Below are positions 1 through 64,000 of a stretch of 64,000 nucleotides of DNA, one piece after another. Source of the DNA: Dehalococcoidia bacterium (GTDB lineage: Bacteria > Chloroflexota > Dehalococcoidia > Plut-88900); the NCBI GenBank assembly GCA_965207225.1, contig CBDBLV010000005.1, positions 1,440,001-1,504,000 on the forward strand. The letters run 5' to 3'. Position numbers and translations under genes: made by a program. Under the pieces are notes generated by a model that did no database searches, had not been told where the DNA came from, and saw nothing but the letters and a program-made list of their open reading frames with translations. Every line of letters starts with the position of its first letter. Positions within the stretch are counted from its first letter, which is position 1.

Positions 1-1
1 G

Positions 2-13074: not shown

Positions 13075-13275
13075 TGATAAAGTCCACTTTGAACTATCCT
13101 GCCGGGGCCATTAGATATTGGCCGTGTTCTTCAAGGGCCATGCCTCCCTCTTGGGCCGCCCCATACCGGATTTATTGGCATCCTTTAGGGTATCGGTGGC
13201 ACCGAACACACTTCCGATTCGCGAGTCATGTTGATCTGGGATACTGTTTCCTAAGGTCTGTTCACGTTCAAGCGG

Positions 13276-13680: not shown

Positions 13681-13702
13681 GGTTCGTGACTGGCATCCTA
13701 GC

Positions 13703-14125: not shown

Positions 14126-14470
14126 TTCTGCCTCAACTTGGAGGGAGTGCCTCCCTTCGCGCTAACCCTTCTGGCTGCCATCATTCTCTATGATGGCCGT
14201 GGTGACTTCTAGTGGCTCCAACGCTGTGAGCATTGTCGGAGACCTGTCGTCGACAGGGCCCGTGTGTCTATCTATGACGTCCATACCGCGGAAGCTATCC
14301 GGAGGGACACCTACTCCTTCGGTTTCGGTGGGTTCCGGATCCTGGAGCTCAGAATATGAGCACACTCTCACTGTGAGCGAAATCTATGTCATTCAGTCTG
14401 GCGGAGGCGATTGTGTCGTCGACGGCACTGAACGTTTTGATCGCATTTCTAGTCTGCCCGTGCACCACAA

Positions 14471-47903: not shown

Positions 47904-48791
47904 TTGCTAATCGTGGCTATCTGCAAGAATTGCGGTGTTGAAGCAAAGATCAAGTTCTTGTTCTGTCCGATCTGTGGGATCCGAGGTGCTTTTGAGTTTC
48001 CTCAAGATGCAAGGGACGAGGGTTGGGTTCAGAGGGTTAGGAAGCGCCTGTTCAAGTCAGACGTCGAGAAAGCCATAGATGAATTTTTCCAGTATATGAC
48101 GCCGTTTGGCTATCCGGAGGGGGAAAGAAATTTAGAGTGTCTTCTTCACCAGCCTGGCACTCATTCTCTGAATTCAATGCAGAAGGAGAGAGTAAGGGCA
48201 GCTCTAGCCCTTGGGTACGGTATTCGAGCTCAATTTGCGGAGTGGGAAAAGGGTGACCCTGAAGAAGCCATAGAAGTCTACGGAGATGCAATTAGGGCCG
48301 CTCCGAAGGAAGCGCAATGGTACGAAGCGAAAGCAGATGCTACTTACAGGTTGGCGCGGTATCTGGACAATTATCAGAAGCACCATTTTGCAACATTTAT
48401 GGGGCCCAACATCGGAAAGCTGCAAAAGATGCTTGCTTCGAAGAAAACACCCGAGGAGCTATATGAGTACGCTCTAGAAGCATATAGCAATGCCATCCAA
48501 TGCGATCCGTACCACGCCCCGGCGTTGATTGGAAGAGCTAAAACCCTCGATGAATTGGGCAACAAGCAGGAATCACGTGAAGACTACAAGGCTGCCATTG
48601 CAATCTTGACTCGGGCTTTATCTGTCAACCCTGGGGACCTTGCCAGCCTCAAGGAACGTGCAGAGGCCTTTGAGGCGCTTGGTCAAATTGACAGGGCAAT
48701 AATGGACCTCAAAAGCAGCATCGCCCTGAAAAAGGATGAATGGTTGGAGAGACGGATAAAAGAACTGGAAGACATCACCGGCTCGACTTGA
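47904..48791 (+). CDS. Zinc-ribbon plus TPR protein
   Basis: CKNC...FCPICG at the N-terminus; TPR repeats (AYSNAIQCDP, AIMDL). Confidence 0.8.
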   Translation: MLIVAICKNCGVEAKIKFLFCPICGIRGAFEFPQDARDEGWVQRVRKRLFKSDVEKAIDEFFQYMTPFGYPEGERNLECLLHQPGTHSLNSMQKERVRAALALGYGIRAQFAEWEKGDPEEAIEVYGDAIRAAPKEAQWYEAKADATYRLARYLDNYQKHHFATFMGPNIGKLQKMLASKKTPEELYEYALEAYSNAIQCDPYHAPALIGRAKTLDELGNKQESREDYKAAIAILTRALSVNPGDLASLKERAEAFEALGQIDRAIMDLKSSIALKKDEWLERRIKELEDITGST

Positions 48792-49426: not shown

Positions 49427-50149
49427 TCAGCAGAATGGTAGCCCGACTTTGGAGAAGTCGTTGCGAGGGACATTCTGGAGGGATGCAGGAATGCAGTCCG
49501 TCAACAAGTTGCCGCGGAGCCACAGCTTTCTCAATTTCCTCAGGTTCCCTAGTTCCCCGGGAATATCTCCACTCAATCGGTTCTCTCTCAGCGTTAAGGT
49601 AAGTAGATTTGAGAGGTTACCCAGTTCCGGAGGGATCTCCCCACTTAAACTATTGTATTCAAGCATCAACGATTCCAGATGCGTCAGGCTGCCCAACTCA
49701 GGCGGGATTTCCCCACTGAGCTCGTTGTGTTCCAGATTGACCCAGCCCAAATCCTTGAGTTTGGCAAGCTCAGGCGGAATCTCGCCGGTAAGCCGGTTGT
49801 CTTCCAGGTTTAACCAAGCCAGGTTCTTCAGATCACCCACCTGAGGTGGAATCTCCCCGACCAGCGCAGCGTGGATCCAAATGACCCGTAGTTGGTCCAG
49901 CCTCGCCAGCTCTGCAATGGGTATCTTTACCTCCGAGTGACCACCGTACAAGATAAGTCCGGTGACGCGGCCTCTTCCGTCCACGAATACACCCTCCCAT
50001 TCGCCAAGTGGCTTATCGTTTAGCCGGTCAGTGTTTTCCTCCCAATGCGGGCCATTGGTTGCTATGCAAAAGTCCGTCAACGCCGCCCTATCCCGATCGT
50101 TGTCAGGCATCTCGATCGAATTACCGGATAAACCGATGGCCGGCCTCAC
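49427..50149 (-). CDS. Plant-type leucine-rich repeat protein (possibly N-truncated)
   Basis: LRRNT-like DRAAL...W..GV, and repeats of LxLxxNxLSGEIPPELGxL. Confidence 0.88.
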   Translation of the reverse strand: MRPAIGLSGNSIEMPDNDRDRAALTDFCIATNGPHWEENTDRLNDKPLGEWEGVFVDGRGRVTGLILYGGHSEVKIPIAELARLDQLRVIWIHAALVGEIPPQVGDLKNLAWLNLEDNRLTGEIPPELAKLKDLGWVNLEHNELSGEIPPELGSLTHLESLMLEYNSLSGEIPPELGNLSNLLTLTLRENRLSGDIPGELGNLRKLRKLWLRGNLLTDCIPASLQNVPRNDFSKVGLPFC

Positions 50150-50214: not shown

Positions 50215-52602
50215 CTAGCGGTCTCCGCCACCCTCCCCCTTGGGCATCCGGTAGCCGACGCGGGGCTCGGTGAAGACGTAGGTGGGGTTCGAGGCATCGT
50301 CGCCCAGTTTGCGCCGCAGCTTGCGCACGATGGTGCGCATAGGCCTCAGGTCGCCAACGCCCCTCTCCCCCCACACTCGGTCCAGGAGATGTTCGTAGGT
50401 CAGCACCCGTCCGGCGCTGGCCGAGAGCTCGGTCAACATCCGGTACTCCAGGGGGAGCAAATGCACCGACCGACCGGCCACTGTCACCCTGCGGTCGGCA
50501 TAGTCGATGATCAGGTCTCCCAGCGCGTACGGCACCTGAGGTTCAGGGATCTCCCGTCGGCGAAGGGCCGCTGCGATCCTTGCCGAAAGTTCCGTCGGTG
50601 AGAAGGGCTTGACCACGTAATCGGCTGCGCCCATGTTGAGGGCCGTAGCGACGGTCTCGTCCCGTCCGTAGGCGGATAGGAAGATCACCGGCACGTCCAC
50701 CATCTCCAGCACATCCTTCATGAGCTCGATGCCGTCGGTCCCGGGAAGCATGATGTCCAACAGGACGAGATGAGGCCGCTCCTCCTCCACGAGGCGGAGC
50801 GCCTCTCCCGGGTCCCCGGTGACCGTAGGAGCGTAACCCGCCTGGATGAGGGTGTCCTGGACGTAGCGAAGGTCCTGGGGGTCGTCGTCCACCGCAAGGA
50901 CCCGTAACCGTTCTCCCTTCGCTTCCCGCTCATGCCGCGAAGAGCGCGCCGGCGCCGGCGCGCGTCCACTCCCAGCGCCACTCCCGGCGTCAGCAACCGT
51001 GGGCAAAGTGAAGGTGAAGCGGGCTCCGAGGCCAGGCCCGCGACTCTCCGCCCAGATGCGGCCGCCGTGGGCCTCCACGATGCCCTTGCAGATGGCCAGA
51101 CCCAGGCCTGTGTCCCCCGCCTGAACATCGGGCTGTATGCTGGAGAACTTGCGGAACAGGTGGGGCAGGCTTTCTAGCGGGATGCCACGTCCCTCGTCGG
51201 TCACCGAGACCGCCACGTGAACACCGTTCTCCACAGCGCTCACCCGGATCACCGACGACTCGGGGGAGTGGCGGGCCGCGTTGGAGAGCAGGTTGCCCAG
51301 CACCTGGATGACGTGCCGCCGGTCGGCCATCACCAGGGGAAGGTCCGGGGCGATGTCGATATCGAGCCGGTTTCGCCCCCCTGCGCTGGTGAAGACGCTT
51401 CTCGCCTGGCCTACCAGCACAGCCATCTGCGCGGGTTCGGGACTGACCGCCAGCGTGCCCGTCTCGATGCGGGCCACATCCAGGAGGTCGGAGACCAGGC
51501 GGTTCATGTGATCGGCCTGGTCCCCGATGATGCGGAAGAACTGGCGCACCACCGCCGGGTCCAGGTCCGTGGGCGACTCCAGCACCGTGGCGGTGGAGCC
51601 CTTGACGGCCGCCAGCGGCGTCCTGAGTTCATGGCTCACCATGGCTAGGAACTCGGCCCGCATGCGGTCCAGCTCCTCGACATTTGCCATGTCCTGCATG
51701 GTGACCACCACCGACTCCACTTTCCCCTGGCCGGAGCGTATGGGCGTGGCGTTGACGAGCACGGTCACGCTGCGCCCATCGGGCACGGCCATGACGATCT
51801 CCTCGGCGCGGACGGCCTCGCTCGAGCTCAGGACGCTGGCCAGGGGAAACTCCTGCAGGGAGACCTCGCTCCCGTCGGCCCTGCGCACGGTGAGCAGTCC
51901 CAGGAGGTCCTCCGGTGCTTGGTCGGGATCCCGCAACCCGTCGACGATCCTGCGGGCCTCCGGGTTGAAGGACGCTGGGGTCCCCGTTTTCATGTCGAAG
52001 ACGACGACGCCCACAGGGGAGGTATCGATGAGGGTCTCCAGTCCCGCCCTGGCCCGCTGCTCCTCTCGATAAGTGCGGGCGTTGGCGATGACCAGGGCTG
52101 CCTGGGATGCGAACATCTCCAGGATCTCCTCGTCGGCCTGGGTGAACTCCTCGCCGCCGTCCTTGTCGCCCACGAATATGTGGCCCGCCGGGACGCCCCG
52201 GTGGAACATCGGCGCCGCCATGAAGCGGAAGACCCCCACCGGCATGGGTATGGTGAACCCGGTGAAGCCCAGGTCCTGCAGGTGACTCGTCAAATCAGGG
52301 AGCCTCGTGGGTTCGGAGATGACGGTCAGGGCCTCGAAGATGCGCAGGCCATCCGGCAAAAGCCAGAGGGTCTGGGACTCCTCAGTGGTTAGCCCGGACG
52401 ACAGGAAGTCCTGCACCTCGCCATGGTCGTCGAGCAGTGTCATAACGCCGTATCGGGCGGCGGTCAGTGACCGGGCGGAGTCCAGCGCCCCCTGGAGCAC
52501 CGCGTCGAAGTCCAGGTTCTCGTTGATGCGCAGGCTGGCCTCACTCAGCCTGGAGAGGCGGTCGCGCAGGGCGGCTTCGTTCTCCGATATCGGTCGGTCC
52601 AA
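50215..52602 (-). CDS. Hybrid GAF-PAS-HK-REC-OmpR regulator (copy 3), divergent from the RiPP exporter operon
   Basis: Same motifs as copy 1. Start taken at TTG 52602 after a GAGGTG RBS (LDRPISENE). Confidence 0.92.
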   Translation of the reverse strand: MDRPISENEAALRDRLSRLSEASLRINENLDFDAVLQGALDSARSLTAARYGVMTLLDDHGEVQDFLSSGLTTEESQTLWLLPDGLRIFEALTVISEPTRLPDLTSHLQDLGFTGFTIPMPVGVFRFMAAPMFHRGVPAGHIFVGDKDGGEEFTQADEEILEMFASQAALVIANARTYREEQRARAGLETLIDTSPVGVVVFDMKTGTPASFNPEARRIVDGLRDPDQAPEDLLGLLTVRRADGSEVSLQEFPLASVLSSSEAVRAEEIVMAVPDGRSVTVLVNATPIRSGQGKVESVVVTMQDMANVEELDRMRAEFLAMVSHELRTPLAAVKGSTATVLESPTDLDPAVVRQFFRIIGDQADHMNRLVSDLLDVARIETGTLAVSPEPAQMAVLVGQARSVFTSAGGRNRLDIDIAPDLPLVMADRRHVIQVLGNLLSNAARHSPESSVIRVSAVENGVHVAVSVTDEGRGIPLESLPHLFRKFSSIQPDVQAGDTGLGLAICKGIVEAHGGRIWAESRGPGLGARFTFTLPTVADAGSGAGSGRAPAPARSSRHEREAKGERLRVLAVDDDPQDLRYVQDTLIQAGYAPTVTGDPGEALRLVEEERPHLVLLDIMLPGTDGIELMKDVLEMVDVPVIFLSAYGRDETVATALNMGAADYVVKPFSPTELSARIAAALRRREIPEPQVPYALGDLIIDYADRRVTVAGRSVHLLPLEYRMLTELSASAGRVLTYEHLLDRVWGERGVGDLRPMRTIVRKLRRKLGDDASNPTYVFTEPRVGYRMPKGEGGGDR

Positions 52603-52670
52603 CTGATCACCTCTATGCGACCGGGGAAGCACCCCTCTCCGGGGCCGCAGGGTATGGCGTCTATCGGGAT

Positions 52671-52760
52671 GATTATGCCAGTACTGGCGGTACATCACAA
52701 TAGGTCATACAAAACACATCGATAAGTCATGGCTATGTCATAAATGCGTAGTACGCTACC
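52671..52760. promoter_or_regulatory. Bidirectional promoter A with TCA(C/T) repeats
   Basis: CATAAT on the minus strand, four TCAY repeats spaced 10/22/11 bp, TACGCT -10 on the plus strand. Aligns ungapped to the reverse complement of 63537-63626. Confidence 0.75.
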
Positions 52761-53151: not shown

Positions 53152-54045
53152 GTGTTCTTCAACAGGCTATTTCGTGAAAAGGCCCTGGCAAGGCGACGGA
53201 GGCAGGAGCCGCTCGACGACCGGTTGCAGGTAACGGCCCCCCACGAGTGGCTGTTGGTGGCCGGGCTGGGCGTGATGTTCCTGGCGCTGCTCGTGTACGG
53301 CGCTGTTGGCAGCGTCGAGCGCAGCCTCTCCTACGATGCGGTGGTGGTCTTTCCCGGCGAGCGCCACACGGTGTCCGCACCTGTCTCCGGCACGGTGATG
53401 GAAGTCCTGGCGGAAGTGGGAGACACCATTGAGCCGGGACAGGTCATCGCCCGGGTTCGCACGGCCGTGGAGCAACAGAGGGAATCCCAGGCGCGTCGGC
53501 TCTCCGAGTTGCTGACGGAGCAGGCGGGCCAAGACGACGAAACGGAGCTGTTCATGCTCCTGCTGGCGCTGGCGGGCGAAGGGGGCGCAGTAGGATCCGA
53601 CGCTGCGGTGAATGTCGTCAGTGTGGCCGGGGGCGAGATCATGACCCTGAGCCTCGCGCCGGGGACGCCCGTCGGCGCCGGTGAGCCGGTGGCGCTGGTA
53701 CGGGCTGCTGCCTCCGGCACCCCCGAAGCCCTTGCGCTGGTGCCGTCCGATGATGCCTGGCGCATCGAGGTTGGGATGGGGGCGCGGGTCAGCGTAACGT
53801 GGGTCAACCGGGAGGCCGGAACCTACCCGGCAGAGGTGGCCGCCGTCTCCGAGCGTGCTGTCACGCCTCCTGCGTGGCTCGACGCGTTGGGCCTGTCTGC
53901 GCAGGCCGGTTCCCATCTGGTGCGCGTGCCGCTAACGGATGACGGCGTGACAGACCTCGTGGCGGACGGCTCCACGGGGTCGCTTCGCGTGGTGGTGGGA
54001 CGGAGTTCTTTCCTGTCCCTCCTTGCGCCGGGAGGCGGCTACTGA
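53152..54045 (+). CDS. NHLM bacteriocin system secretion protein (HlyD-like)
   Basis: LFREKAL...EPLDDRLQVT..W motif, TM helix, barrel-sandwich hybrid (APVSGTV...VGD). Confidence 0.88.
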   Translation: MFFNRLFREKALARRRRQEPLDDRLQVTAPHEWLLVAGLGVMFLALLVYGAVGSVERSLSYDAVVVFPGERHTVSAPVSGTVMEVLAEVGDTIEPGQVIARVRTAVEQQRESQARRLSELLTEQAGQDDETELFMLLLALAGEGGAVGSDAAVNVVSVAGGEIMTLSLAPGTPVGAGEPVALVRAAASGTPEALALVPSDDAWRIEVGMGARVSVTWVNREAGTYPAEVAAVSERAVTPPAWLDALGLSAQAGSHLVRVPLTDDGVTDLVADGSTGSLRVVVGRSSFLSLLAPGGGY

Positions 54046-56246
54046 TGCGGATGCCGTACCTGATTGGCGGGCGCCGCGGGCCCCGCAGGGCGCGGACGCC
54101 CCTGATGCTACAGATGGAGGACACCGAGTGCGGCGCCGTCTGCCTGGGCATCGTCCTAGCCTACTTCGGGCGTTGGGTCTCCGTGGAGGAGCTGCGCGAG
54201 TCGTGCGCCGTCAACAGGGACGGCTGTGACGCCGCCGACATCACGCGCGCCGCCCGCGGCTACGGGCTGGAGTCACGGGGCTGGCGCCGGGAGCCGGAAC
54301 AACTCGGCGACATGACCATGCCGCTGATCATCTTCTGGGAGTTCAACCACTTCCTGGTGCTGGAGGGGATCCGGGCAGGCAACTACCTGGTGAACGACCC
54401 GGCCAACGGACACCGGACGCTGACCGCCGAGGAGTTCGACCAGGGGTTCACCGGAATCGCGCTGAGCTTCGAGGCCGGACCGGACTTTCGTCCCGGAGGC
54501 TCCCGCCCCGGCGTCGTCCGCAGGCTGTGGCCCTGGCTCTCGGACGTGACCGGGCCGCTGGCATTCGCGCTGTTCTGCGGGCTTCTGCTGTCGCTCCCGG
54601 TCGCCGCCCTGCCGTTCCTGCTGAGCGTCTTCGTCGACCACGTGCTGAGCGGGCGGGAGCCCCAGTGGGGAGCTGCGCTGGCGGGAGGAGTGGCTCTGGC
54701 CGGCGGCCTGGTGTACCTGCTGACCTGGCTGCGGCAGCGCTGCCTCAGACTCCTGGCCGTGCGGCTCTCGGTGGACCACGCAGACCGCTTCATCAGACGG
54801 CTGTTCCGTCTGAAGATGCGGTTCTTCACCAACCGATACGGCGGTGATCTGACCTCCCGGATCCAGCTGATCGACCAGGTCTCCAAGGTGGCGACCGAGC
54901 AGTTCGTCGGGGTGGCCATCGAGCTGGTCACCAGCGCCGTATTCCTGCTGTTCCTGTTCCTGTACGACCCGTTGCTGGCCGGGGCGGTGGCGGCGCTGGG
55001 CGCGGTCAACCTGTATGTCATGCGCCTGCTCACCCGGGGACGGGTGGGCGAGAACCGACGCCTCCAGCGCGAGCAGGGCAAGCTGCAGGGCGTGGGGATG
55101 TACGGCCTGAGCAATATCGACACCCTGCAGTCGACCTCCGGCGAGGTCGGGTTCTTCTCCCACTGGAGCGGCTACCAGGCCAGGGAGCTGCTGGCCCGCC
55201 AGCGCTTCGCGGAGATAGGGCACCTCATGGGAGCACTGCCGGGCGTGTTCGTGATCCTGGGCAACGCCGTCGTGCTGGGGGTGGCGGGCTGGCGCGTGAT
55301 GGAGGGCGACATGTCCCTGGGCATGATGATGGGGTGCTACGTCCTGGCGACGTACTTCCTGATGCCCATCGGACGTCTGGCGCTGTTCGCCGACCTGTTC
55401 CAGGTCCTGGAGGCCAACCTCCAACGGATCGAGGACGTGATGGATGCCCCGGAGGACGCCTACTTCCAGGAGGACGGAGAGCGGCCCTCCGAGAGCAGCG
55501 CCGCTCTCAGCCGGACGGTGCGCCTGAGCGGGCAGCTTGAGTTGCGCAACGTGGAGTTTGGTCACAAGGCGAACCGGGAGCCGATGTTCCAGGACTTCAA
55601 TCTGACCATAGAGCCGGGCCAGAGGGTTGCCCTCGTCGGCCCGTCCGGGTCCGGCAAGTCGACGCTGGCGCTGCTGGCGGCGGGCGTCCACCAGCCCTGG
55701 TCGGGAGCGGTCCTCCTGGACGGCCACCCTCGCTCTGAAGTCCCCCGCAACCTGCTCGGCAGCTCGGTGGCCATGGTAGACCAGCGCATATTCCTATTCG
55801 CCGGCACCGTGCGGGAGAACCTGAGCCTGTGGAACCTTGAGATCCCCGAGCATGACCTGGTTGCCGCGGCCGCCGACGCGGCCATCCACGACGAGATCAT
55901 GGCGCGGGCGCAGGGCTATGATGCGCCCGTGGACGAGGGTGGGCGGAACTTCAGCGGCGGCCAGCGCCAACGCCTAGAGATTGCCCGCGCCCTGGTGGGC
56001 AACCCGTCTTTGCTGATACTGGACGAGGCCACCAGCGCGCTGGACCCGATAACCGAAGTGCGCATCGACGAAGCCCTTCGCCGGCGCGGATGCGCCTGCC
56101 TGATAGTGGCGCACCGCCTCAGCACCATCCGCGACTGCGACCTGATAGTGGTCTTGGACGGCGGGCGGGAAGTTCAGCGGGGCACGCACACCGAGCTGAT
56201 GACGGACCGGGACGGCCTCTACCGCCACCTGATGGAGACGGAATGA
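54045..56246 (+). CDS. NHLM-type ABC exporter with C39 peptidase
   Basis: LQMEDTECGA (catalytic Cys), WEFNHFLV, NDPA; TM domain; GPSGSGKS, FSGGQRQR, LDEATSALD. Confidence 0.95.
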   Translation: MRMPYLIGGRRGPRRARTPLMLQMEDTECGAVCLGIVLAYFGRWVSVEELRESCAVNRDGCDAADITRAARGYGLESRGWRREPEQLGDMTMPLIIFWEFNHFLVLEGIRAGNYLVNDPANGHRTLTAEEFDQGFTGIALSFEAGPDFRPGGSRPGVVRRLWPWLSDVTGPLAFALFCGLLLSLPVAALPFLLSVFVDHVLSGREPQWGAALAGGVALAGGLVYLLTWLRQRCLRLLAVRLSVDHADRFIRRLFRLKMRFFTNRYGGDLTSRIQLIDQVSKVATEQFVGVAIELVTSAVFLLFLFLYDPLLAGAVAALGAVNLYVMRLLTRGRVGENRRLQREQGKLQGVGMYGLSNIDTLQSTSGEVGFFSHWSGYQARELLARQRFAEIGHLMGALPGVFVILGNAVVLGVAGWRVMEGDMSLGMMMGCYVLATYFLMPIGRLALFADLFQVLEANLQRIEDVMDAPEDAYFQEDGERPSESSAALSRTVRLSGQLELRNVEFGHKANREPMFQDFNLTIEPGQRVALVGPSGSGKSTLALLAAGVHQPWSGAVLLDGHPRSEVPRNLLGSSVAMVDQRIFLFAGTVRENLSLWNLEIPEHDLVAAAADAAIHDEIMARAQGYDAPVDEGGRNFSGGQRQRLEIARALVGNPSLLILDEATSALDPITEVRIDEALRRRGCACLIVAHRLSTIRDCDLIVVLDGGREVQRGTHTELMTDRDGLYRHLMETE

Positions 56247-59182
56247 GCAGCGACTTCGAAAAGGCCATCGACGCGACGGCTACGCACCGCATGGCCCAGC
56301 TGGCGCTCGCCCGCGGGGAACCAGCCCCCGGTGGCGGCAACCGCCCCATCCACCTCTCCGACCCCGGTGTCATGTGCTTCGTGGAGGAGGGACCGGTGGA
56401 CGTGTTCGCGGCCCGACGCCGGGCCGACGGGGTGCCGGCCAACTTCAAGCATCTGCTGCGTGCCGGAACCGGGCGGCTGCTGTTTCCCGCCGCGGAGAGC
56501 CTGACCGGGACGGTGCTGGTGATCAAGGGCCTTCCCGGCTCCGCGCTGCGCCTGTTGCCTCTGGACGCGCTCGACGGCGCCGGGTGCGATGGACTGGTCG
56601 TCGAGCAGGCGTGGGACTGGGTCTCCGAGGTCTCCGAGGCGGTGACGCGAGAGTTCACCTATCGCCCGCGCATAGACCGGCTCCTGTCTACGGAGCGGGT
56701 GGAGCAGCCGGTGGAGGCCGGGCAGGCGCTGTCGGCGCGCCGGGGCGTAGTGTGGGTGTCCAGCGGTGACGGGAGCCTTGTCTACCTCGGCACCGAAGAG
56801 GGTGACCCGGACGGCCCCGGCGTGGTCCCGGTCACGTCCGCGAGCTGGGTGACGGCGTCGAAGGATGCCGCGGTGCGCTGCCTCTCCACGACGGAGCTCC
56901 ACGGGGAGGGGCGGCTTATGTCCGCCCTGACGGCCTTCAACGATCTGGCCCTGAGCGCCGACGACCTCAACCGGCGCCTGCTCCTGGCCGACGTCGCCAA
57001 CTTGCAGACGAGCACCGCCGAGTACCGCCAGAGGGGTGAAGAGAACGCACGCCGCCGCCTCTTCGGGGTGCTGGGACCCGGGGTTGGGCGAGAGGGAGAC
57101 GACCTGGCCCTCCCCGGGGCGCTGCAACTGGTCGGCCGCTACGAGGGCATCGCCTTCCGCATGCCCCATGGCCCGGCGCAGCGCCCGGGGTCCGCCGCAG
57201 AAGGGCCGTCGCTGGCCGACGTCCTGCTGGCCTCCGGGGTGCGCATGAGACGGATCGCCCTGCGCATGGAGCAACGCTGGTGGCAGGGGGACAGCGGCGC
57301 GATGCTCGCCATCCGCGCGGGAGACGGCGCGCCCGTGGCCCTCTTGCCGGGGCCCCTGGGATACTACCGGATGGTCGAGCCGGAGTCCGGCCGCCTCCGG
57401 CGGGTCACCGCCCGGCGGGCAGAGTCGCTGGAGCGGGAGGCCTATTTCTTCTACTGTCCGCTGCCCGACGACGAACCGGTCGGGGCCCGGCAGCTGTCCG
57501 GGTTGGCATTCCACCGGGTGGGGGCCGACTTTGTCCGGATGGTCGGGGCCGGGATGCTTGCCGGCCTCGCAATGCTGGTGCCTGCCGTCCTCCTCGGGGC
57601 CTTCGTGGGGCGGGCGCTGCCCTCCGGCTCCCTGCAGATGCTGGGGGCGCTGACCCTGGGAGCCGTTCTCATCGCCCTGCTCCTGGGTGTGCTGCAGATG
57701 TTCCAGGGCACGGCGCTGATGAGGCTGGAGGGCCGGGTGACGGCGCGCGCCGGAGCGGCAATGTGGCACCGGATGCTGGACCTGCCGTCGGGGTTCTTCC
57801 GACGCTTCACCGCCGGCGACCTGGCCACGCGGGCGATGGCGTTCTACGAGCTGCGGGACCAGGTGTCGGGAGTCGTCGTGGGCGCGCTGCTATCGGTCCT
57901 CTTCCTGCTCCCCACCTTCGCCCTGCTCTTCCTGTATAACGCCGCCCTGGGCTGGCTGTGCCTTGGTCTGGGACTGGTCTGCCTGGGCGTCACCCTCGCG
58001 CTGGGCCTGATGCAGACGCCATACCATCGCCGTCGGCTGGCCGTCACCCGGCGGCTGGCGGGGACGCTGCTCCAGCTGATAGGCGGGGTGGGCAAGCTGC
58101 GGACCGCGGGCGCCGAGGGAATGGCCTTCATCATGTGGGCCCGGGGATACCGGGAGCAGAAGCAGACGGAGATGAGGCTGGGGGCGTACCAGGAGCACCT
58201 GATGGCCTTCACCGCGGCCGTGCCGCTGCTCGCCTCCGCAGCGCTGTTCGCCCTGGCATTGACGATTGGCGGGGACGACCTGGCAGTGGGCGGCTTTCTG
58301 GTGGTGTACGCCGCCTTCATGGTGTTCAATGGCGCGGTCGTCCAGCTCGGCGGGGCCTTCTCCGCCCTCGCCGCCATACTCCCTGCCGTGCAGCAGGTGC
58401 AGCCCATCCTGGCCCAGCGCCCCCGCAACGTCTCCTCGGACCTTCCAGCCCCCGAGCTGAAGGGCGAGGTGCTGCTGGACCGCGTGAGCTTCCGCTACTC
58501 TGACGACGGGCCGCTGATCCTCAACGACGTGACCATCCACGCCCTGCCGGGAGAGTTCATCGCCCTGGTCGGGGAGTCGGGCGCGGGAAAGAGCACGATA
58601 TTCCGTCTGGCCCTGGGACTTGAGAGGCCGCAGCTCGGCGCCGTCTACTACGACGGCCACGACTTGAACAGGCTCAACTGGAGCTCGGTGCGCAGCAGGA
58701 TCGGCACTGTCCCTCAGGACGCCCACCTGCGCCCACAGACGATTCTGGACAACATCATCGGCATCGACGGGGAGCTGAACGAGGACGACGCATGGCGGGC
58801 CGCCAGGCTGGCACGGGTGGAAGCCGACATCGCGGCAATGCCCATGCGCATGTACACCGTCAGCAGCGAGAGCGCCGCGGCCTTCTCCGGCGGCCAGGTG
58901 CAGCGCTTCATGCTGGCCGCCGCCCTGGCTCGGGATCCCAAGGTGCTGCTGCTGGACGAGGCGACCAACTGGCTCGACAACCGGACCCAGGCCGACATCA
59001 TGGAGCAGATCGAGCAGCTCTCCGTGACCCGCATCATCAGCGCCCATCGCCTGTCCACCATTCGGCGGGCCGACCGCATCTACGTGCTCCAGGGCGGGCG
59101 GGTTGTCCAGGAGGGGACCTTCGAAGGGCTGATGGAACAGGAAGGCGTCTTCCGGGACCTGGTCAGGCGGCAACTGACGTGA
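56243..59182 (+). CDS. NHLM-type ABC transporter, second subunit
   Basis: ATGA overlap with the previous gene; WWQGDSGAMLA; GESGAGKS, FSGGQ, LDEATN. Confidence 0.93.
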   Translation: MSSDFEKAIDATATHRMAQLALARGEPAPGGGNRPIHLSDPGVMCFVEEGPVDVFAARRRADGVPANFKHLLRAGTGRLLFPAAESLTGTVLVIKGLPGSALRLLPLDALDGAGCDGLVVEQAWDWVSEVSEAVTREFTYRPRIDRLLSTERVEQPVEAGQALSARRGVVWVSSGDGSLVYLGTEEGDPDGPGVVPVTSASWVTASKDAAVRCLSTTELHGEGRLMSALTAFNDLALSADDLNRRLLLADVANLQTSTAEYRQRGEENARRRLFGVLGPGVGREGDDLALPGALQLVGRYEGIAFRMPHGPAQRPGSAAEGPSLADVLLASGVRMRRIALRMEQRWWQGDSGAMLAIRAGDGAPVALLPGPLGYYRMVEPESGRLRRVTARRAESLEREAYFFYCPLPDDEPVGARQLSGLAFHRVGADFVRMVGAGMLAGLAMLVPAVLLGAFVGRALPSGSLQMLGALTLGAVLIALLLGVLQMFQGTALMRLEGRVTARAGAAMWHRMLDLPSGFFRRFTAGDLATRAMAFYELRDQVSGVVVGALLSVLFLLPTFALLFLYNAALGWLCLGLGLVCLGVTLALGLMQTPYHRRRLAVTRRLAGTLLQLIGGVGKLRTAGAEGMAFIMWARGYREQKQTEMRLGAYQEHLMAFTAAVPLLASAALFALALTIGGDDLAVGGFLVVYAAFMVFNGAVVQLGGAFSALAAILPAVQQVQPILAQRPRNVSSDLPAPELKGEVLLDRVSFRYSDDGPLILNDVTIHALPGEFIALVGESGAGKSTIFRLALGLERPQLGAVYYDGHDLNRLNWSSVRSRIGTVPQDAHLRPQTILDNIIGIDGELNEDDAWRAARLARVEADIAAMPMRMYTVSSESAAAFSGGQVQRFMLAAALARDPKVLLLDEATNWLDNRTQADIMEQIEQLSVTRIISAHRLSTIRRADRIYVLQGGRVVQEGTFEGLMEQEGVFRDLVRRQLT

Positions 59183-59247
59183 GTCGCCCGTCCCGCCAGA
59201 TAAACGATGGAGGCATGGAGGAGGCAGACGAGAGTGAGGAGGACTGC

Positions 59248-60339
59248 ATGAAGGCAAGCGAGACAGGGCCGGGAAGCGGGCTCTCCAGCGAGGCGCCCCA
59301 CGGCTCCTTTGGCGAGTTCCTGGCGGAGCTGCACAGCCTGTTTCCTTCCGCGCTGCTCAGCGGACCCGGCTGGGAGCGTCTGCTGGTGCTGGCGCATCGC
59401 CTGCCCATCCACGTGTTCGACCAACGTTTCGGTTTCGAGTTCGATCTGTGCGTCCCCGACCCGGCGGCGGACTTCTGCGTGGTGCCGCCTCCCGGCTCCC
59501 GTCTTGCCGAGTTCTACGCCCAGCAGGGCCAGCTTGCCCCACGGGGGTCCGCAGAGGCCGCGCTGGGGGCGTTTCTCGCCGAACAGTCAAGCGACCCGCA
59601 GGCTTTTCTGGCAGGGCGAAACGGCGGCGTGATACTCGAGTACGATCTGGCCGGGATTCCGTCGGAGCAACCGGCCTCGCCCGGGATCTTCATAGTGCCT
59701 CGGGATGCGCAGGAAGAGTCCTGCATTGAGGGGTTATTCGGCGACCTGGAGCCTGTCATAGCCGCCCTGTGGGCGGTCGCCGGGTGGACGCCCGACGCCG
59801 CGATCCTGCGGCAGGTACGCCGGGTCTACCAGACCATGCCCCCGATGGGCTTGGTCACCCAGGCAGGCGTCCTGCCCAGCCGCGCGCAACGGGCGGTCCG
59901 TCTCATCATAGGCACGGGTTCCGGCACAGATGCCGTTGAGCTCTTGTCACGGCTCGGGTGGTCCGGTCCCCCTGCGGACGTGCTCGCCGTGTACGAGAGC
60001 CTGGAGGAGATGACGAGCCCGGGCGTCAGCCTGAGCGTTGACGTTACCGCGGAGGGGGTATCTCCCCGCCTTGGATTGGAGTTCCACCGGCCCGCCCAGT
60101 GGTACGAGCTGGACCGCTCCGGGTGGAATCGGCTGGTCGATCGGTTGGAAGAGAGGGGATGGTGCCTTCCGGGGAAGGCCCGCGGTCTGAAGGCATGGCC
60201 GCGAGTGGAGCAGGTCTTCGATCAAGCCGGAGTGTTCATGGTCCGGCAGAGCATCAATCATGTAAAGGTGGTTGTGAACCGCGGAAGAACTGAGGCCAAA
60301 GCCTACGCCGGCACGGCTATCTCGAAGGCGATCCCGTAG
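59248..60339 (+). CDS. Uncharacterised RiPP maturase, putative PT-barrel (ABBA) prenyltransferase
   Basis: Last gene of the exporter operon. Motifs GFEFDL..ADF, LEYD, R..RL, RLGLEF, NHVKV, EAKAY. Alternative start GTG at 59179. The function is an inference. Confidence 0.6.
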   Translation: MKASETGPGSGLSSEAPHGSFGEFLAELHSLFPSALLSGPGWERLLVLAHRLPIHVFDQRFGFEFDLCVPDPAADFCVVPPPGSRLAEFYAQQGQLAPRGSAEAALGAFLAEQSSDPQAFLAGRNGGVILEYDLAGIPSEQPASPGIFIVPRDAQEESCIEGLFGDLEPVIAALWAVAGWTPDAAILRQVRRVYQTMPPMGLVTQAGVLPSRAQRAVRLIIGTGSGTDAVELLSRLGWSGPPADVLAVYESLEEMTSPGVSLSVDVTAEGVSPRLGLEFHRPAQWYELDRSGWNRLVDRLEERGWCLPGKARGLKAWPRVEQVFDQAGVFMVRQSINHVKVVVNRGRTEAKAYAGTAISKAIP

Positions 60340-60407
60340 GCCTGCGCCGCGCCGTTAACGGCCAGCCGCCGATCGACCCTGTCGTCGCCGATATGCCTGC
60401 CGCGTTA

Positions 60408-60677
60408 CTAGCTTGGGTTCCCCCATTCCTTAACGTAGGGGAACCCGCCGGCTATCTTCTCCAGCTCCGTCTCCGTGAGCTCCGACGATGGCGGCAGCAC
60501 CAGGTGGGCGGTGGTGGCGCTGTCCTCGTGCACAACCACGTCGAAACCGTCCGGTATGACCGTGCCTATCTCGGAGGCGATGGCGCCCTTCGGGTCGGCG
60601 ATAAGGCGGGTGCGGAACTCGCTGTCCACCTCCGCTTTGTCGAGTATCCGGTCCTTCATTTCGGTTGCTGTCGTCAT
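60408..60677 (-). CDS. NHLP-leader precursor 8, core FPYVKEWGNPS
   Basis: FRTRLIADPK, HLVLPP, ELEKIAGG cleavage site. Confidence 0.92.
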   Translation of the reverse strand: MTTATEMKDRILDKAEVDSEFRTRLIADPKGAIASEIGTVIPDGFDVVVHEDSATTAHLVLPPSSELTETELEKIAGGFPYVKEWGNPS

Positions 60678-60724
60678 TGCTCTATTCCTTTCTCTCTTCT
60701 TCGTTTCAGATAGTGGCTCCCCAT

Positions 60725-60784
60725 TCAGGGAAAGGGGGGCAGAACCAGGTGAGCGGTGGTGGCGCAGTCCTCGTGCACCACGAC
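60725..60784 (-). pseudogene. NHLP leader fragment
   Basis: Translates VVVHEDCATTAHLVLPPFP* with no start. Confidence 0.75.
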
Positions 60785-60799
60785 ATGTCATGTCGTTCT

Positions 60800-61063
60800 T
60801 TACCATGGGCTCTGGCCTCTGTAGGCGCGCCCTCCTGCGACCGTCTCCAGTTCGGTCTCCGTGAGTTCCGGCGATGGCGGCAGCACTAGGTGGGCGGTGG
60901 CAGCGCTGTCCTCGTGCACCACCACGTCGAACCCGTCCGGTATGGCCGTGCCTATCTCGGAGGCAATGGCCCCATTCGGGTCGGCGATTAGGCGGGCGCG
61001 GAACTCGTCGTCCTCCGACGCTTTGCCCAGAATCTGCTTCTTCAGTTCGGCTGCCGTCGTCAT
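60800..61063 (-). CDS. NHLP-leader precursor 7, core RAYRGQSPW
   Basis: Conserved leader; ELETVAGG. Confidence 0.92.
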   Translation of the reverse strand: MTTAAELKKQILGKASEDDEFRARLIADPNGAIASEIGTAIPDGFDVVVHEDSAATAHLVLPPSPELTETELETVAGGRAYRGQSPW

Positions 61064-61159
61064 TGCGCTACTCCTTTCTCTCCTGCTCGTTTCGGGTAGC
61101 GGCTCCCTGCATTCGAAGGTGGGGATGCCACGCCAAGTGATCCTCTTGGCTTCCCCAAC

Positions 61160-61210
61160 CTAGGCGCCACCTTTGCCCCATGGCGTCACTCCCCAAGCAG
61201 CTCCGGCGAC
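61160..61210 (-). pseudogene. Orphan (untranslated) core cassette VAGA-AWGVTPWGKGGA*
   Basis: Lies 4 nt after the stop of precursor 6; homologous to the core of precursor 4. Confidence 0.8.
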
Positions 61211-61214
61211 AGGT

Positions 61215-61493
61215 TCACCCGGTCGGTGGAGTCCACTCCGGTGTCTTCGCTCCCCAAGTAGCTCCGGCGACCATCTCCAACTCCGCATCCGTGAGCTCCG
61301 GCGAGGGGGGCAGCACCAGGTGGGCGGTGGTGGCACCTTCCTCGTGCACCACCACTTCGAACCCGTCCGGTAGGGCCGCGCCTATCTCGGAGGCGATGGC
61401 GCCCTTCGGGTCGGCGATGAGACGGGTCCGGAACTCGCCGTCCTCCGACGCCTTGCCCAGAATCTGCTTCTTCAGTTCGGCTGCTGTCGTCAT
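61215..61493 (-). CDS. NHLP-leader precursor 6, core TWGAKTPEWTPPTG
   Basis: Conserved leader; ELEMVAGA. Confidence 0.92.
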   Translation of the reverse strand: MTTAAELKKQILGKASEDGEFRTRLIADPKGAIASEIGAALPDGFEVVVHEEGATTAHLVLPPSPELTDAELEMVAGATWGAKTPEWTPPTG

Positions 61494-61698
61494 TGCTCTA
61501 CTCCAATCTCTCTTGTTCGTTTCGGTTGGCGGTTCCCTGCATTCGATAGTGGGTATGGATACCTCACCACACGATTGTCAACATGCCGCCCGTTGCCTTT
61601 CCAACTCGGCCTAGGTCAGCGCCGGCATTAGCGCCGGGACGCCGGCTTCAGGGCTTCCCAATCGGCTTCCGCCCGCGACCAACCTGCGCCCTCCTTGG

Positions 61699-61965
61699 TC
61701 AAAAGTCATCGGACGCGTCCCAACCAGCGTTTCCGCCGGCGACCATCTCCATCTCGGCCTCGGTGAGCTCCGGCGAGGCCGGAAGCACCAGGTGGGCGGT
61801 GGTGGCGTCATCCTCGTGCACCACCACGTCGAACCCGTCCGGTATGGCCGTTCCGATCTCGGAGGAGATGGCGGCCTTCGGGTCAGCGATGAGGCGGGCG
61901 CGGAACTCGCTGTCCACCTCCGCTCTGCCCAGAATCTGCGTCTTCAGTTCGGCTACCGTCGTCAT
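61699..61965 (-). CDS. NHLP-leader precursor 5, core NAGWDASDDF
   Basis: Conserved leader; EMEMVAGG; AAGGAG RBS. Confidence 0.92.
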   Translation of the reverse strand: MTTVAELKTQILGRAEVDSEFRARLIADPKAAISSEIGTAIPDGFDVVVHEDDATTAHLVLPASPELTEAEMEMVAGGNAGWDASDDF

Positions 61966-62061
61966 TGCGCTGCTCCTTGCTCTCCTGTTCGTTTCGGATA
62001 GCGGCTCCCCGCATTCATAGGTGGGCATGTCACGGCAAGTGATCCTCTTGGCATCCCCAAC

Positions 62062-62334
62062 CTAGGCGCCGCCTTGGCCCCATGGTGTCGCTCCCCAACC
62101 AGCTCCGGCGACAGCTTCCAGTTCCGCATCCGTGAGCTCCTGCGAGGGAGGCAGCACCAGATGGGCGGTAGTGGCGCCGTCCTCGTGCACCTCTACGTCG
62201 AACCTATCGGGTATGGCCGTGCCGATCTCGGAGGCTATGGCACCCTTCGGGTCCCTGATAAGGCGGGCGCTGAACTCGGCGTCCTCAGCCGCCCTGCTCA
62301 GGACCTGTGTCTTCAGTTCGGTTGCTGTGGTCAT
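62062..62334 (-). CDS. NHLP-leader precursor 4, core GWGATPWGQGGA
   Basis: Conserved leader; ELEAVAGA. Confidence 0.92.
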   Translation of the reverse strand: MTTATELKTQVLSRAAEDAEFSARLIRDPKGAIASEIGTAIPDRFDVEVHEDGATTAHLVLPPSQELTDAELEAVAGAGWGATPWGQGGA

Positions 62335-62430
62335 AGCCTTACTTCTATTCTCATCTTCGTTCCCCATGGTGGCTCCCCGTGTTGGAAGGGGACCTGCTGC
62401 CGGACCACCTCCGGACTCAGCCTTGCTGTC

Positions 62431-62688
62431 CTAACCCCACAGGCCGGTATGGTGGCCTCCGGCGACGGTCTCCAGTTCGGCCTCCGTGAGCTCCGGAGAG
62501 GGGGACAGCACCAGGTGGGCCGTGGTGGCAGTGTCCTCGTGCACCACGACGTCGAACCCGTCCGGTATGGTAGCTCCGATTTCGGAGGCAATGGCGGCCT
62601 TCGGGTCGGCAATGAGAAGCGCGCGGAATACGCCGTCCTCCGACGCCCTGCCGAGTATCCGGTCCTTCATTTCGGTTGCCGTGGTCAC
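62431..62688 (-). CDS. NHLP-leader precursor 3, core HHTGLWG
   Basis: GTG start after AAGGAG; ELETVAGG. Confidence 0.92.
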   Translation of the reverse strand: MTTATEMKDRILGRASEDGVFRALLIADPKAAIASEIGATIPDGFDVVVHEDTATTAHLVLSPSPELTEAELETVAGGHHTGLWG

Positions 62689-62757
62689 GGCTCTCCTTCT
62701 TTCACTATGTGCTCCAAGAGACTTCACCCTGGGTTGCTGTATCCGAAAAGGTATCCG

Positions 62758-63018
62758 TTACCAGGCCATATAGCCCCCGATGCCGCCGGCAACTGACTCC
62801 AGCTCGGCCTCCGTCAGCTCCGGCGAGAGGGGCAGCACCAGGTGGGCGGTGGTAGCGCTGTCCTCGTGCACCACCACGTCGAACCCGTCCGGTATGGCTG
62901 ATCCGATCTCGGAGGCGATTGCAGCCTTCGGTTCGGCGATGAGGCGGGCGCGGAACTCGCTGTCCTCGGCCGCCTTGCTCAGGACCTGTCTCTTCAACTC
63001 GGTTGCAGTGGTCATCAT
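62758..63018 (-). CDS. NHLP-leader precursor 2, core IGGYMAW
   Basis: GAGGTG RBS; ELESVAGG. Confidence 0.92.
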   Translation of the reverse strand: MMTTATELKRQVLSKAAEDSEFRARLIAEPKAAIASEIGSAIPDGFDVVVHEDSATTAHLVLPLSPELTEAELESVAGGIGGYMAW

Positions 63019-63102
63019 TCACCTCGTTTTTGACTATTTGGGGGTCTCAACTGGCCCCGCCCGGCGGCCAACCCGAGGTCAGCCGGCGCCAAATCCGGTC
63101 AG

Positions 63103-63143
63103 AAAGACAGCGCCAAGGGGGACGTCCGGTGGCGCCGTCCTTT
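63103..63143 (-). terminator. Stem-loop after the first precursor
   Basis: Minus strand AAAGGACGGCGCCA-loop-TGGCGCTGTCTTT, with G-U pairs. Confidence 0.55.
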
Positions 63144-63152
63144 TGCGGTACG

Positions 63153-63422
63153 CTAGCCGTTCGGGTTTACCTTCTGATCCCAAAGATTCCCGCCCGCGAC
63201 CATCTCCAGCTCCGCCTCGGTGAGCTCCGGCGTGGGTGGCAGCACCAGGTGGGCGGTGGTGGCGCCGTCCTCGTGGACGACCACATCGAACCCGTCCGGT
63301 ATGGCCGTTCCGATCTCGGAGGCTATGGCCCCCTTCGGGTCTGCGATGAGGCGGGCGCGGAACTCGCCGTCCTCGGCTGCCTTGCTCAGAATCTGGGTCT
63401 TCATTTCGGTTGCCGTGGTCAT
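63153..63422 (-). CDS. NHLP-leader precursor 1, core NLWDQKVNPNG
   Basis: AAGGAG RBS; ELEMVAGG. Confidence 0.92.
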   Translation of the reverse strand: MTTATEMKTQILSKAAEDGEFRARLIADPKGAIASEIGTAIPDGFDVVVHEDGATTAHLVLPPTPELTEAELEMVAGGNLWDQKVNPNG

Positions 63423-63536
63423 GGTATTGCTCCTTTTCTCTCATTCGCTCCAGATCGTGGTTCTCTCAATCGAGGAGGGACACCCTTTCAACGTGGGATC
63501 GGCTTCCCTTACCTCATCCCATAGCTGTAAACCCCT

Positions 63537-63626
63537 GTAATCCTACAATATATGTATGATATTAAGGTGACTTGTGGGCTAAATGTTCGTGACCTATTGT
63601 GATATTTGGCCAATGTTGGCATAATC
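63537..63626. promoter_or_regulatory. Bidirectional promoter B (inverted copy of promoter A)
   Basis: The reverse complement reads GATTATGCCA..ATCACAATAGGTCA..AAGTCA..TCATA..TAGGAT, in the same register as 52671-52760. Confidence 0.75.
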
Positions 63627-63693
63627 GTCGCGACTAATGCGGGTTCTTGAGGTCTTGTAGGACGAGCCTCCGCGGCCGGATCGAGGTGAAGAG

Positions 63694-64000
63694 TTGGACC
63701 AACCGATATCGAAGAACGAGGTCACCGCACCTGAAGAGCTTTACGGCAAGCGCTACGTTCGGCCGTACGCGGCCCTCTATATCAATCACCCGTTGTGGGA
63801 GCCTAAACTGCAATGCAACGTAGCACTGCTAAGCAGGCTGTTGAAGTCGTTGGGCAACTGGCTGGACACTTGCTGCGGGCAAGGGTGGCACCTGGCGCAG
63901 TTTCCCAACCACCGGCGGATGGGCATTGACCTCAGCGCGGCCCAACTCGAAAAGGCGAGGCTGCAGAACCCCGGAGTCCCCTTCATCCAGGCAGACATCA
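63694..64000 (+). CDS. Class I SAM-dependent methyltransferase (partial, runs off the edge)
   Basis: TTG start after GAGGTG; MDQPISKNE...WLDTCCGQG...GIDLSAAQL...FIQADI. Not in the ORF track because it has no stop in the window. Confidence 0.8.
   Translation, partial: MDQPISKNEVTAPEELYGKRYVRPYAALYINHPLWEPKLQCNVALLSRLLKSLGNWLDTCCGQGWHLAQFPNHRRMGIDLSAAQLEKARLQNPGVPFIQADI

Follow-up and report, generated by a model that had tools for sequence, protein, structure and literature searches.

We analysed a stretch of 64,000 nucleotides (nt), hereafter the window, from a Dehalococcoidia bacterium (assembly GCA_965207225.1, contig CBDBLV010000005.1, positions 1,440,001 to 1,504,000 of the forward strand). 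Near its end lies an array of short precursor genes, convergent with a gene for an unannotated protein of 363 amino acids (aa). A preliminary description of this DNA had claimed eight precursors at 60408-63422 and had singled out tryptophan (Trp) as the residue that is modified. All eight open reading frames (ORFs) are present at these positions on the minus strand, and we propose, on the strength of a predicted fold, that the 363-aa protein is a peptide Trp prenyltransferase. The two elements are composed as follows:

59248-60339, plus strand: unannotated 363-aa protein with a predicted ABBA (alpha-beta-beta-alpha)/PT-barrel prenyltransferase fold; alternative ATG at 59215
60408-60677, minus strand: NHLP precursor 8, core FPYVKEWGNPS after IAGG; TIGR03793 68.3 bits
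60729-60784, minus strand: isolated leader fragment of 56 nt, lying between precursors 8 and 7; a ninth copy of repeat D2, which is the most conserved part of the leader
60800-61063, minus strand: NHLP precursor 7, core RAYRGQSPW; TIGR03793 above cut-off
61215-61493, minus strand: NHLP precursor 6, core TWGAKTPEWTPPTG after VAGA; TIGR03793 above cut-off
61699-61965, minus strand: NHLP precursor 5, core NAGWDASDDF; TIGR03793 above cut-off
62062-62334, minus strand: NHLP precursor 4, core GWGATPWGQGGA after VAGA; TIGR03793 above cut-off
62431-62688, minus strand: NHLP precursor 3, core HHTGLWG; GTG start at the canonical position
62758-63018, minus strand: NHLP precursor 2, core IGGYMAW; TIGR03793 above cut-off
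63153-63422, minus strand: NHLP precursor 1, core NLWDQKVNPNG

All eight precursors matched the leader model TIGR03793 (leader_NHLP) with 63.4-75.9 bits, the curated cut-off being 50.9 bits, and they are the only genes above this cut-off in the 4.03-Mb assembly. Sub-threshold matches fell in a 208-aa frame on another contig, apparently a true nitrile-hydratase alpha subunit. The leaders, which the preliminary description called near-identical, are similar to one another (76-84% protein identity to the first copy), to a degree for which that term is too strong. Each leader ends in VAGG, IAGG or VAGA, a Gly-Gly or Gly-Ala site, and the cores of 7-14 aa that follow are precisely the strings given earlier. 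The boundary between the two parts is sharp and the cores are unrelated: across the eight copies, mean pairwise DNA identity is 0.83 in the 234-nt leader and 0.24 in the first 30 columns past the Gly-Gly codons, with 0.56 in the 60 nt upstream of the ATG. The array forms a 300-nt direct-repeat family with a spacing of 327-472 nt, beginning exactly at the leader/core junction. The fragment at 60729-60784 is likely a relic of a lost precursor gene. A promoter and terminator scan of the array yielded nothing above shuffled expectation on the minus strand.

Trp occurs in all eight cores and cysteine (Cys) in none; apart from glycine (Gly), also found in all eight, no other residue is common to them. 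At a background frequency of 1.0%, only 0.78 of the eight cores would be expected to carry Trp, and the probability that all eight do so is about 7e-9. The presence of Gly, which had likewise been presented as a shared feature of the cores, proved to be nothing special: in the related loci described below, Gly makes up 13.6% of core residues against a background of 11.2%, and several cores (for example, IAMIIW, MIIVW and HHEWV) lack it altogether.

The 363-aa protein is the sole plausible maturase of the locus. The ORFs scanned, between 45 kb and the end of the window and over the next 9 kb, included no LanM, YcaO or radical S-adenosylmethionine (SAM) protein, nor a lanthionine synthetase of the MppM type or a fused terpene cyclase. 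Scans of the 363-aa protein against Pfam and NCBIfam gave no match. Its family is nevertheless large: a library clustered at 50% identity holds 1196 of its representatives at E<=1e-3, of which 99 reach E<=1e-30; among the family matches listed, every name given by the source was “hypothetical protein” and none carried a Pfam domain. An AlphaFold2 model built from a 65-member alignment scored a pLDDT of 92.3 and a pTM of 0.91, with pairs of helices alternating with beta hairpins, as in an ABBA barrel. A Foldseek search of this model against the PDB returned 91 matches at E<=1e-3 (probability 1.00, E down to 2.3e-6). Those listed were all ABBA prenyltransferases, most of them acting on indole or tryptophan, and included DMATS1 (2.3e-6), FgaPT2, IptA, AnaPT, PriB, CymD, MpnD, AmbP1, CloQ, EpzP and 5-DMATS of Streptomyces coelicolor. 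Independently of this, the nearest named neighbours in a language-model Atlas included clusters with PF11991 Trp_DMAT (0.91), PF11468 and PF19156.

The family alignment revealed a set of invariant or nearly invariant polar residues (E64, D75, E131, D133, R212, R218, K310, H338, K340, K351 and Y353), and in the AlphaFold2 model the conserved charged and aromatic residues lie mostly on predicted strands or hairpins. A predicted complex of the enzyme with the HHTGLWG precursor, made without controls (ipSAE 0.17 and 0.13 with alignments A2 and A4, the mark being 0.32), was not used either way. We found no fused forms of greater length (637-2000 aa) in the family, which is weak evidence. Two members of about 490 aa (P0003 and P0059) have low-complexity tails with no Pfam match, and an N-terminal stretch of a third, P0022, weakly resembles squalene-hopene cyclase (E 0.076), a lead only. 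In a low-GC genome (L058, G045:C108, 7886-8944), a distant member that scores E 1e-28 against the profile still has the HIK...EAKAY motif at its C-terminus, and its gene adjoins one for an 886-aa protein.

A pattern-plus-tblastn scan of one genome per species recovered 29 related loci with enzyme relatives 40-73% identical to that of the window. By record names, these belong to Dehalococcoidia, other Chloroflexota, SAR202, Nitrospirales, Vicinamibacterales/Acidobacteria, Gemmatimonadetes, Latescibacterota, Acidimicrobiia, a Rhodobacter and a gammaproteobacterium. Using a hidden Markov model of the window leaders, we detected NHLP precursor ORFs within 10 kb of the enzyme gene in all 29 loci (92 ORFs in total). 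Trp was present in 86 of the 92 cores, so that the finding which the preliminary description had named as a refutation, a frequent lack of Trp in such arrays, did not arise. Among unique cores of <=25 aa, 67 of 72 contained Trp, compared with 6.6 expected; overall, Trp accounts for 11% of the relatives’ core residues against a background of 1.0%, an 11-fold enrichment. Counting the relatives and the window together, Trp is the final residue of 27 unique cores. Taken with a sole candidate maturase whose predicted fold is that of indole/aromatic prenyltransferases, these counts lend indirect support to the earlier claim that Trp is the modified residue.

The six cores without Trp comprise a truncated one, GSL, and five with tyrosine (Tyr): VDVYPV (twice), IDYDPNIS, IDYEPNIS and VEMYRF. 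The Tyr of VDVYPV and IDYDPNIS sits comparably to the Trp of VDVNWDTVNIS. In the enzyme tree, two of the three loci with Tyr cores (L030 and L036) pair with 100/100 support and are nested in a clade, also supported at 100/100, whose other members use VDVNWDTVNIS. This nesting looks like a switch of the aromatic acceptor from Trp to Tyr inside one enzyme lineage. The Trp-less cores also bear on an alternative that we consider unlikely, namely that the ABBA enzyme prenylates another site, such as the new N-terminus left by leader removal or a different side chain, and that Trp is kept for the sake of the mature peptide, for example for membrane insertion or receptor binding. That some cores do without Trp fits this alternative, as does the presence of a methyltransferase beside the enzyme, both in the window and in 12 of the 29 related loci. 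However, the Trp-less cores carry Tyr, another aromatic prenyl acceptor, core N-termini are not conserved, and Trp remains the one residue besides Gly that unites the eight window cores and that is so strongly enriched in the relatives.

As a control, we took a 400-genome phylum sample, set aside every genome with a match to the enzyme at E<=1e-10 and collected the NHLP precursors above cut-off from the rest. Trp was found in two of seven such precursors, or in one of three core families, the rest being Cys-rich and Trp-less; small as it is, this control shows that NHLP cores do not carry Trp as a rule. Duplications also link the enzyme with its presumed substrates. In a gammaproteobacterial metagenome-assembled genome (L034), four enzyme paralogues, 42-46% identical to the window’s, alternate with six NHLP precursors, whose cores (GHWYHGYW and RSWMYDRAW, for example) are rich in Trp, indicating that enzyme and substrate genes were duplicated together. 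This locus consists of repeated enzyme-substrate cassettes, unlike the arrangement of one enzyme with many substrates seen in the window.

The genes surrounding the array and the enzyme include a dedicated export system, a methyltransferase and a candidate regulator:

50215-52698, minus strand: soluble hybrid sensor kinase/response regulator, 827 aa, with the domains GAF-PAS-HisKA-HATPase-REC-winged helix
52577-52707, minus strand: shared block, copy 1, in front of the hybrid kinase gene, with promoter-like hexamers, GAGGTGA, a TTG start and the first ~9 codons
53152-54045, plus strand: short HlyD-like membrane-fusion protein; HlyD_3 1.5e-8, TIGR03794 81 bits (below the 156-bit cut-off)
54045-56246, plus strand: NHLP-family export ATP-binding cassette (ABC) transporter, ABC1, with an N-terminal C39 peptidase domain; TIGR03796 891.6 bits (cut-off 853.3), Peptidase_C39 7e-32
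56090-59182, plus strand: second NHLP-system ABC permease/ATPase subunit, ABC2, with an N-terminal extension of ~340 aa; TIGR03797 697.6 bits, just under the cut-off of 709.4
63590-63719, plus strand: shared block, copy 2, upstream of and into the methyltransferase gene
63694-64000 and on to 64401 beyond the window, plus strand: class I SAM methyltransferase, 235 aa; Methyltransf_25 1.1e-12

The genes for the HlyD-like protein, ABC1, ABC2 and the 363-aa protein form a four-gene operon on the plus strand, convergent with the precursor array. An NHLP export system thus adjoins the precursors, with TIGR03796 above its cut-off, TIGR03797 12 bits below and TIGR03794 well below. From its domains, ABC1 is predicted to be both the protease that removes the leader at Gly-Gly and the exporter. 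Such a C39 transporter would suffice for processing and export, and one could imagine that the peptides leave the cell unmodified, like double-glycine bacteriocins or pheromones, while the ABBA protein serves in small-molecule prenylation, in immunity or as a chaperone. Distant homologues of the enzyme in genomes devoid of any NHLP precursor would agree with that. We nonetheless judge it improbable, as the enzyme gene lies within the transporter operon and beside the array, enzyme relatives and NHLP precursors occur together in 29 of 29 loci across phyla and were co-duplicated in L034, and in every characterised case examined NHLP leaders serve maturases.

The four closest loci (L010-L013) keep the gene order of the window: kinase-regulator, HlyD, ABC1, ABC2, enzyme, 5-14 precursors and methyltransferase. 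Related loci have 5-14 precursors for a single enzyme, the largest number, 14, being found in L013. Further genes follow that of the enzyme in other loci. Oxidases dependent on flavin adenine dinucleotide (FAD), with a cytokinin-dehydrogenase-type domain, are encoded right after it in L023 (11130-12551) and L025 (10848-12443). In a clade with xWCSPV cores, it is followed by a family III coenzyme A (CoA)-transferase (L024, 10911-13663; L028, 11004-13604), next to which L028 encodes an FAD_binding_4 oxidase (13608-15026). These oxidases and CoA-transferases may represent further tailoring steps. More broadly, the enzyme family elsewhere adjoins enzymes that act on Trp or isoprenoids: a Trp halogenase, a squalene-hopene-cyclase-like region and the oxidases with cytokinin-dehydrogenase domains.

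The methyltransferase gene diverges from the far end of the precursor array, and its product is a possible second tailoring enzyme. Homologues with 64-84% identity were found in 12 of the 29 related loci. The protein weakly resembles BioC and Tam, two carboxyl O-methyltransferases (E about 2e-6, far below cut-offs), which hints at an ester product and no more. We also considered whether this protein might be the main maturase, acting on the indole, the N-terminus or the C-terminus, with the ABBA protein as an accessory. In the closest loci it is better conserved (80-84% identity, compared with 71-73% for the ABBA protein), its gene directly follows the ABBA gene in L018-L020, L030 and L036, and the BioC and Tam matches also count in its favour. 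Its absence within 10 kb in 17 of the 29 loci, which still pair the ABBA enzyme with Trp cores, makes this explanation very improbable.

The hybrid kinase at 50215-52698 is the candidate regulator of the cluster, and homologues with 71-75% identity occupy the same position in L010-L013. In front of its gene lies one copy of a block of ~130-150 nt that has exactly two copies in the genome, inverted and at the two outer ends of the cluster; the second precedes and enters the methyltransferase gene. The block carries a sigma-70-like TTGTGA-17-CATAAT with an upstream TG, and the first codons read MDRPISENE and MDQPISKNE in the two copies. The sole sigma-70-like match in 60300-63750 lies within copy 2 (63590-63719). 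The two-copy promoter block suggests that the kinase and methyltransferase genes are co-regulated and that the kinase probably starts at the TTG at 52602. A separate kinase and regulator pair is encoded just past the methyltransferase. We asked whether the flanking kinases could be membrane receptors of the ComP/PalP type and ruled this out, given their hydrophilic N-terminus and their GAF and PAS sensor domains. Two overlapping minus-strand ORFs at 45086-47462, encoding GAF-PAS (46527-47462) and HisKA-HATPase-REC-winged helix (45086-46540), have the domain order of the hybrid kinase and appear to be a split or frameshifted paralogue of it. A third paralogous kinase and regulator were observed at L009 (1070-3794). 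Just outside the high-GC cluster lie genes for a tetratricopeptide-repeat protein (47904-48791, plus strand) and a leucine-rich-repeat protein (49427-50149, minus strand) with weak matches to the leucine-rich-repeat regions of XopAC/XopAE-type effectors; we saw no tie between either and the cluster.

The cores themselves recur across genomes. HHTGLWG is identical in the window, L010, L011, L014 (twice) and L017 (three Dehalococcoidia assemblies and one Nitrospirales), and GSHKGYYW in four assemblies. In the DNA encoding these two cores every difference is synonymous, while the leaders beside the shared cores have diverged to 74-82% DNA identity, except for 88% between the two L014 copies. Other window cores have recognisable kin: RAYRGQSPW has RGYRGNINW, RGYRGQHSFPW and RGYMGSPIW in L012-L014, NLWDQKVNPNG has (G)NLWQNSMPSHMGG.. 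in L010, L012 and L013 (also given as GNLWQNSMPSHMGGNG), and IGGYMAW resembles IGGMVTLW. Since cores stayed unchanged with synonymous-only differences as their leaders diverged, the array is a stable repertoire under purifying selection rather than a hypervariable library. Duplicate cores occur within L012, L013 and L014, and by the pattern of their sequences the arrays grow through tandem duplication. A literature search for six of the core strings found no paper.

These results bear on the earlier comparison of the array with a diversity-generating library of the prochlorosin kind. Prochlorosins arise from many precursors of the Nif11/NHLP type, with conserved leaders, unrelated cores and double-glycine export, which a single enzyme, ProcM, matures by forming lanthionines on Cys, serine and threonine. 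The architecture is indeed alike, with one maturase serving many precursors that share a leader and differ in their cores. The term “diversity-generating” does not hold, as the same cores recur across genomes and phyla. Unlike a prochlorosin locus, the window has Cys-free cores and no LanM was found.

The GC content rises to 0.61-0.71 from 50 kb to about 7 kb past the window, whereas the 42 kb before this stretch lie mostly at 0.50-0.59; the genome has other high-GC patches as well. One such region, at 1-8000 of the window (0.61-0.62), holds two very long minus-strand ORFs of 1111 aa (open-ended) and 1454 aa. None of the 40 relatives searched (eight from the same genus, three from the same family and 29 from the same class) yielded the enzyme, which was detected in only five of 400 other genomes of the phylum sample. 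In addition, the enzyme tree is out of step with host names; the window enzyme groups with that of a Nitrospirales assembly, and both fall inside a Dehalococcoidia clade with 100/99 support. The high GC, the rarity in relatives and a tree that does not follow the hosts together suggest that the whole cluster was horizontally transferred. A search of sequencing runs gave four matching runs from one study and sample, with no RNA run among the matches listed.

A recently imported island could also be a decaying, non-functional one. The high-GC patch and the absence of the enzyme from the 40 relatives, including the eight of the same genus, are in keeping with such an origin, and the leader relic at 60729-60784 and the GTG start of one precursor could be read as signs of decay. 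The genes, however, tell otherwise: intact ORFs encode all eight precursors, the enzyme, both ABC proteins and the methyltransferase, half of the leader codon differences over all pairs are synonymous (467 versus 464 non-synonymous), and the HHTGLWG core was preserved through synonymous changes only. We therefore give this possibility very little weight, close to none.

Overall, a set of secreted peptides with lipid tags is the most likely product of the locus. The reading that we favour, and hold to be fairly probable, is a cluster for peptides synthesised ribosomally and modified post-translationally (RiPPs) in which leader-guided Trp prenylation and optional methylation precede Gly-Gly cleavage and export by an NHLP-type C39 ABC system. 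The structured NHLP leader of ~78 aa would dock on the stand-alone ABBA enzyme (59248-60339), which would then take a prenyl group from a prenyl diphosphate and attach it to the Trp indole in the core of all eight precursors. The adjoining SAM methyltransferase perhaps adds a methyl group. The C39 domain of the ABC transporter would cleave after Gly-Gly or Gly-Ala, the ABC1/ABC2/HlyD system would export the prenylated peptides of 7-14 residues, and the adjacent GAF-PAS hybrid kinase may regulate the cluster. An enzyme that faces eight unrelated cores, or as many as 14 in L013, must rely for recognition on the leader and on little beyond an aromatic side chain.

Several points weigh against Trp prenylation as the chemistry of this locus. 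It is predicted from genes, fold and co-occurrence. The assignment of the 363-aa protein to the ABBA fold is drawn from a predicted structure, and the TM-scores of its Foldseek matches were moderate (0.41-0.59, with a root-mean-square deviation of 6-8 A and 10-16% identity). A Pfam search at E<=1 with 65 family members found no PF11991 (Trp_DMAT), PF11468 (PTase_Orf2), PF19156 or other relevant family, and a sequence search of the PDB with the 65-member profile at E<=10 found no prenyltransferase. Many of the 29 loci are closely related or come from the same assembly, so the counts overstate their independence; six of the 92 cores beside enzyme relatives lack Trp; and the control set is small, with seven precursors in three core families, one of them with Trp. 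Finally, two genomes with distant homologues of the enzyme (G045 and G057) had no NHLP precursor anywhere, and the wider enzyme family is therefore not tied to NHLP substrates.

The conserved cores invite a more far-reaching picture, which we offer tentatively and consider unlikely. One promiscuous leader-guided Trp prenyltransferase would mature a fixed vocabulary of 5-14 short lipopeptides, among which HHTGLWG and GSHKGYYW would be kept letter for letter in Chloroflexota and Nitrospirota through transfer of the cluster among community members. These peptides would act as shared ComX-like signals, not antibiotics, and would be read via the co-regulated soluble GAF-PAS hybrid kinase.

Leader-guided Trp prenylation of long-leader RiPPs is already known from PalQ (2023), NctPC (2024) and MppC (2025). 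The present locus is a simpler and apparently unstudied form, in which one stand-alone ABBA-fold enzyme faces many substrates with short linear cores. In the literature searched, supplements excluded, we found no description of a stand-alone ABBA enzyme combined with arrays of short linear NHLP cores, an optional methyltransferase and a distribution over several phyla. Because the maturase is unseen by any family model, annotation pipelines may mis-score clusters of this kind. If one leader does allow the enzyme to accept eight or more unrelated cores, the enzyme would make an attractive tool for peptide lipidation. That short cores are conserved exactly in different phyla points to a specific ecological role.

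The enzyme family also extends into another type of Trp-centred cluster. The product of the srp cluster type was reportedly described as cryptic in a 2021 study. Both the srp clusters and the window centre on the Trp of a short NHLP core. According to two papers, the srp precursor SrpE has the core LCCCW, and the cluster encodes the YcaO protein SrpC and the Trp-6 brominase SrpI, whose bromination of Trp is strictly leader-dependent (PMC10858898, PMC10286304). The portions of these papers that were examined make no mention of a prenyltransferase or of prenylation. We found the same make-up in L056 (G097:C1:839000-857500), where an NHLP precursor ending in LCCCW, a Trp halogenase, a member of the window’s enzyme family (E 4.8e-92 to the family profile) and a YcaO protein are encoded in this order at 6909-13471. 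The locus also encodes a 450-aa protein with an NHLP-like N-terminus and a weak squalene-hopene-cyclase-like match. The presence of this family inside an srp-type cluster is thus unremarked in the portions of the srp literature examined. Unlike the srp clusters, the window has no halogenase or YcaO protein among the ORFs scanned and no Cys in its cores.

A second relevant system is that of Paenibacillus alvei, in which the NHLP precursor PalX (core DNVRRFFW) is prenylated by PalQ at its C-terminal Trp; the PalX leader enhances the reaction, and a histidine kinase gene lies nearby (Miyata, Ito, Fujinami 2023, PMC10853753). The PalP-PalX-PalQ system and the window share an NHLP-type precursor, a short Trp core and a nearby kinase gene. 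They differ in the enzyme, PalQ having an isoprenoid-synthase (ComQ-like) fold and the window’s enzyme a predicted ABBA fold. PalQ serves a single precursor and is selective for a C-terminal Trp, whereas the window has eight precursors, of which only two have Trp-terminal cores. Its kinase, a soluble GAF-PAS hybrid, is also unlike the one described for the PalP system.

Two further parallels, MppC and NctPC, are likened here to the window’s enzyme by predicted fold and gene context. A study by Hubrich et al. (Chem 2024) is said to report that the substrate of NctPC is a proteusin, and the enzyme reportedly takes geranylgeranyl diphosphate and forms a fusion with a terpene cyclase. The window’s enzyme, in contrast to such a fusion, stands alone, with no cyclase found in the locus. 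A review describes NctPC as an enzyme of the alpha-beta-beta-alpha fold that places geranylgeranyl onto Trp (PMC13290415).

MppC, from Moorena producens PAL, is a soluble, leader-dependent ABBA prenyltransferase that geranylates C5 of a single Trp in a Nif11 lanthipeptide and requires the whole, structured Nif11 leader of its substrate MppE (Wakeel, McShan, Agarwal 2025, PMC12715784). The MppC/MppE pair and the window have in common an alpha-beta-beta-alpha fold (predicted in the window), a precursor with a long leader and a short core with Trp. The MppE leader carries an L(x)4L motif ahead of its double-glycine-type site, and the window leaders carry ELTEAEL. The MppE leader is of the Nif11 type, and a lanthionine synthetase first cyclises the MppE core, whereas the window combines NHLP leaders with Cys-free cores, and no LanM was found. 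Unlike MppC with MppE, the window pairs one enzyme with eight different cores.

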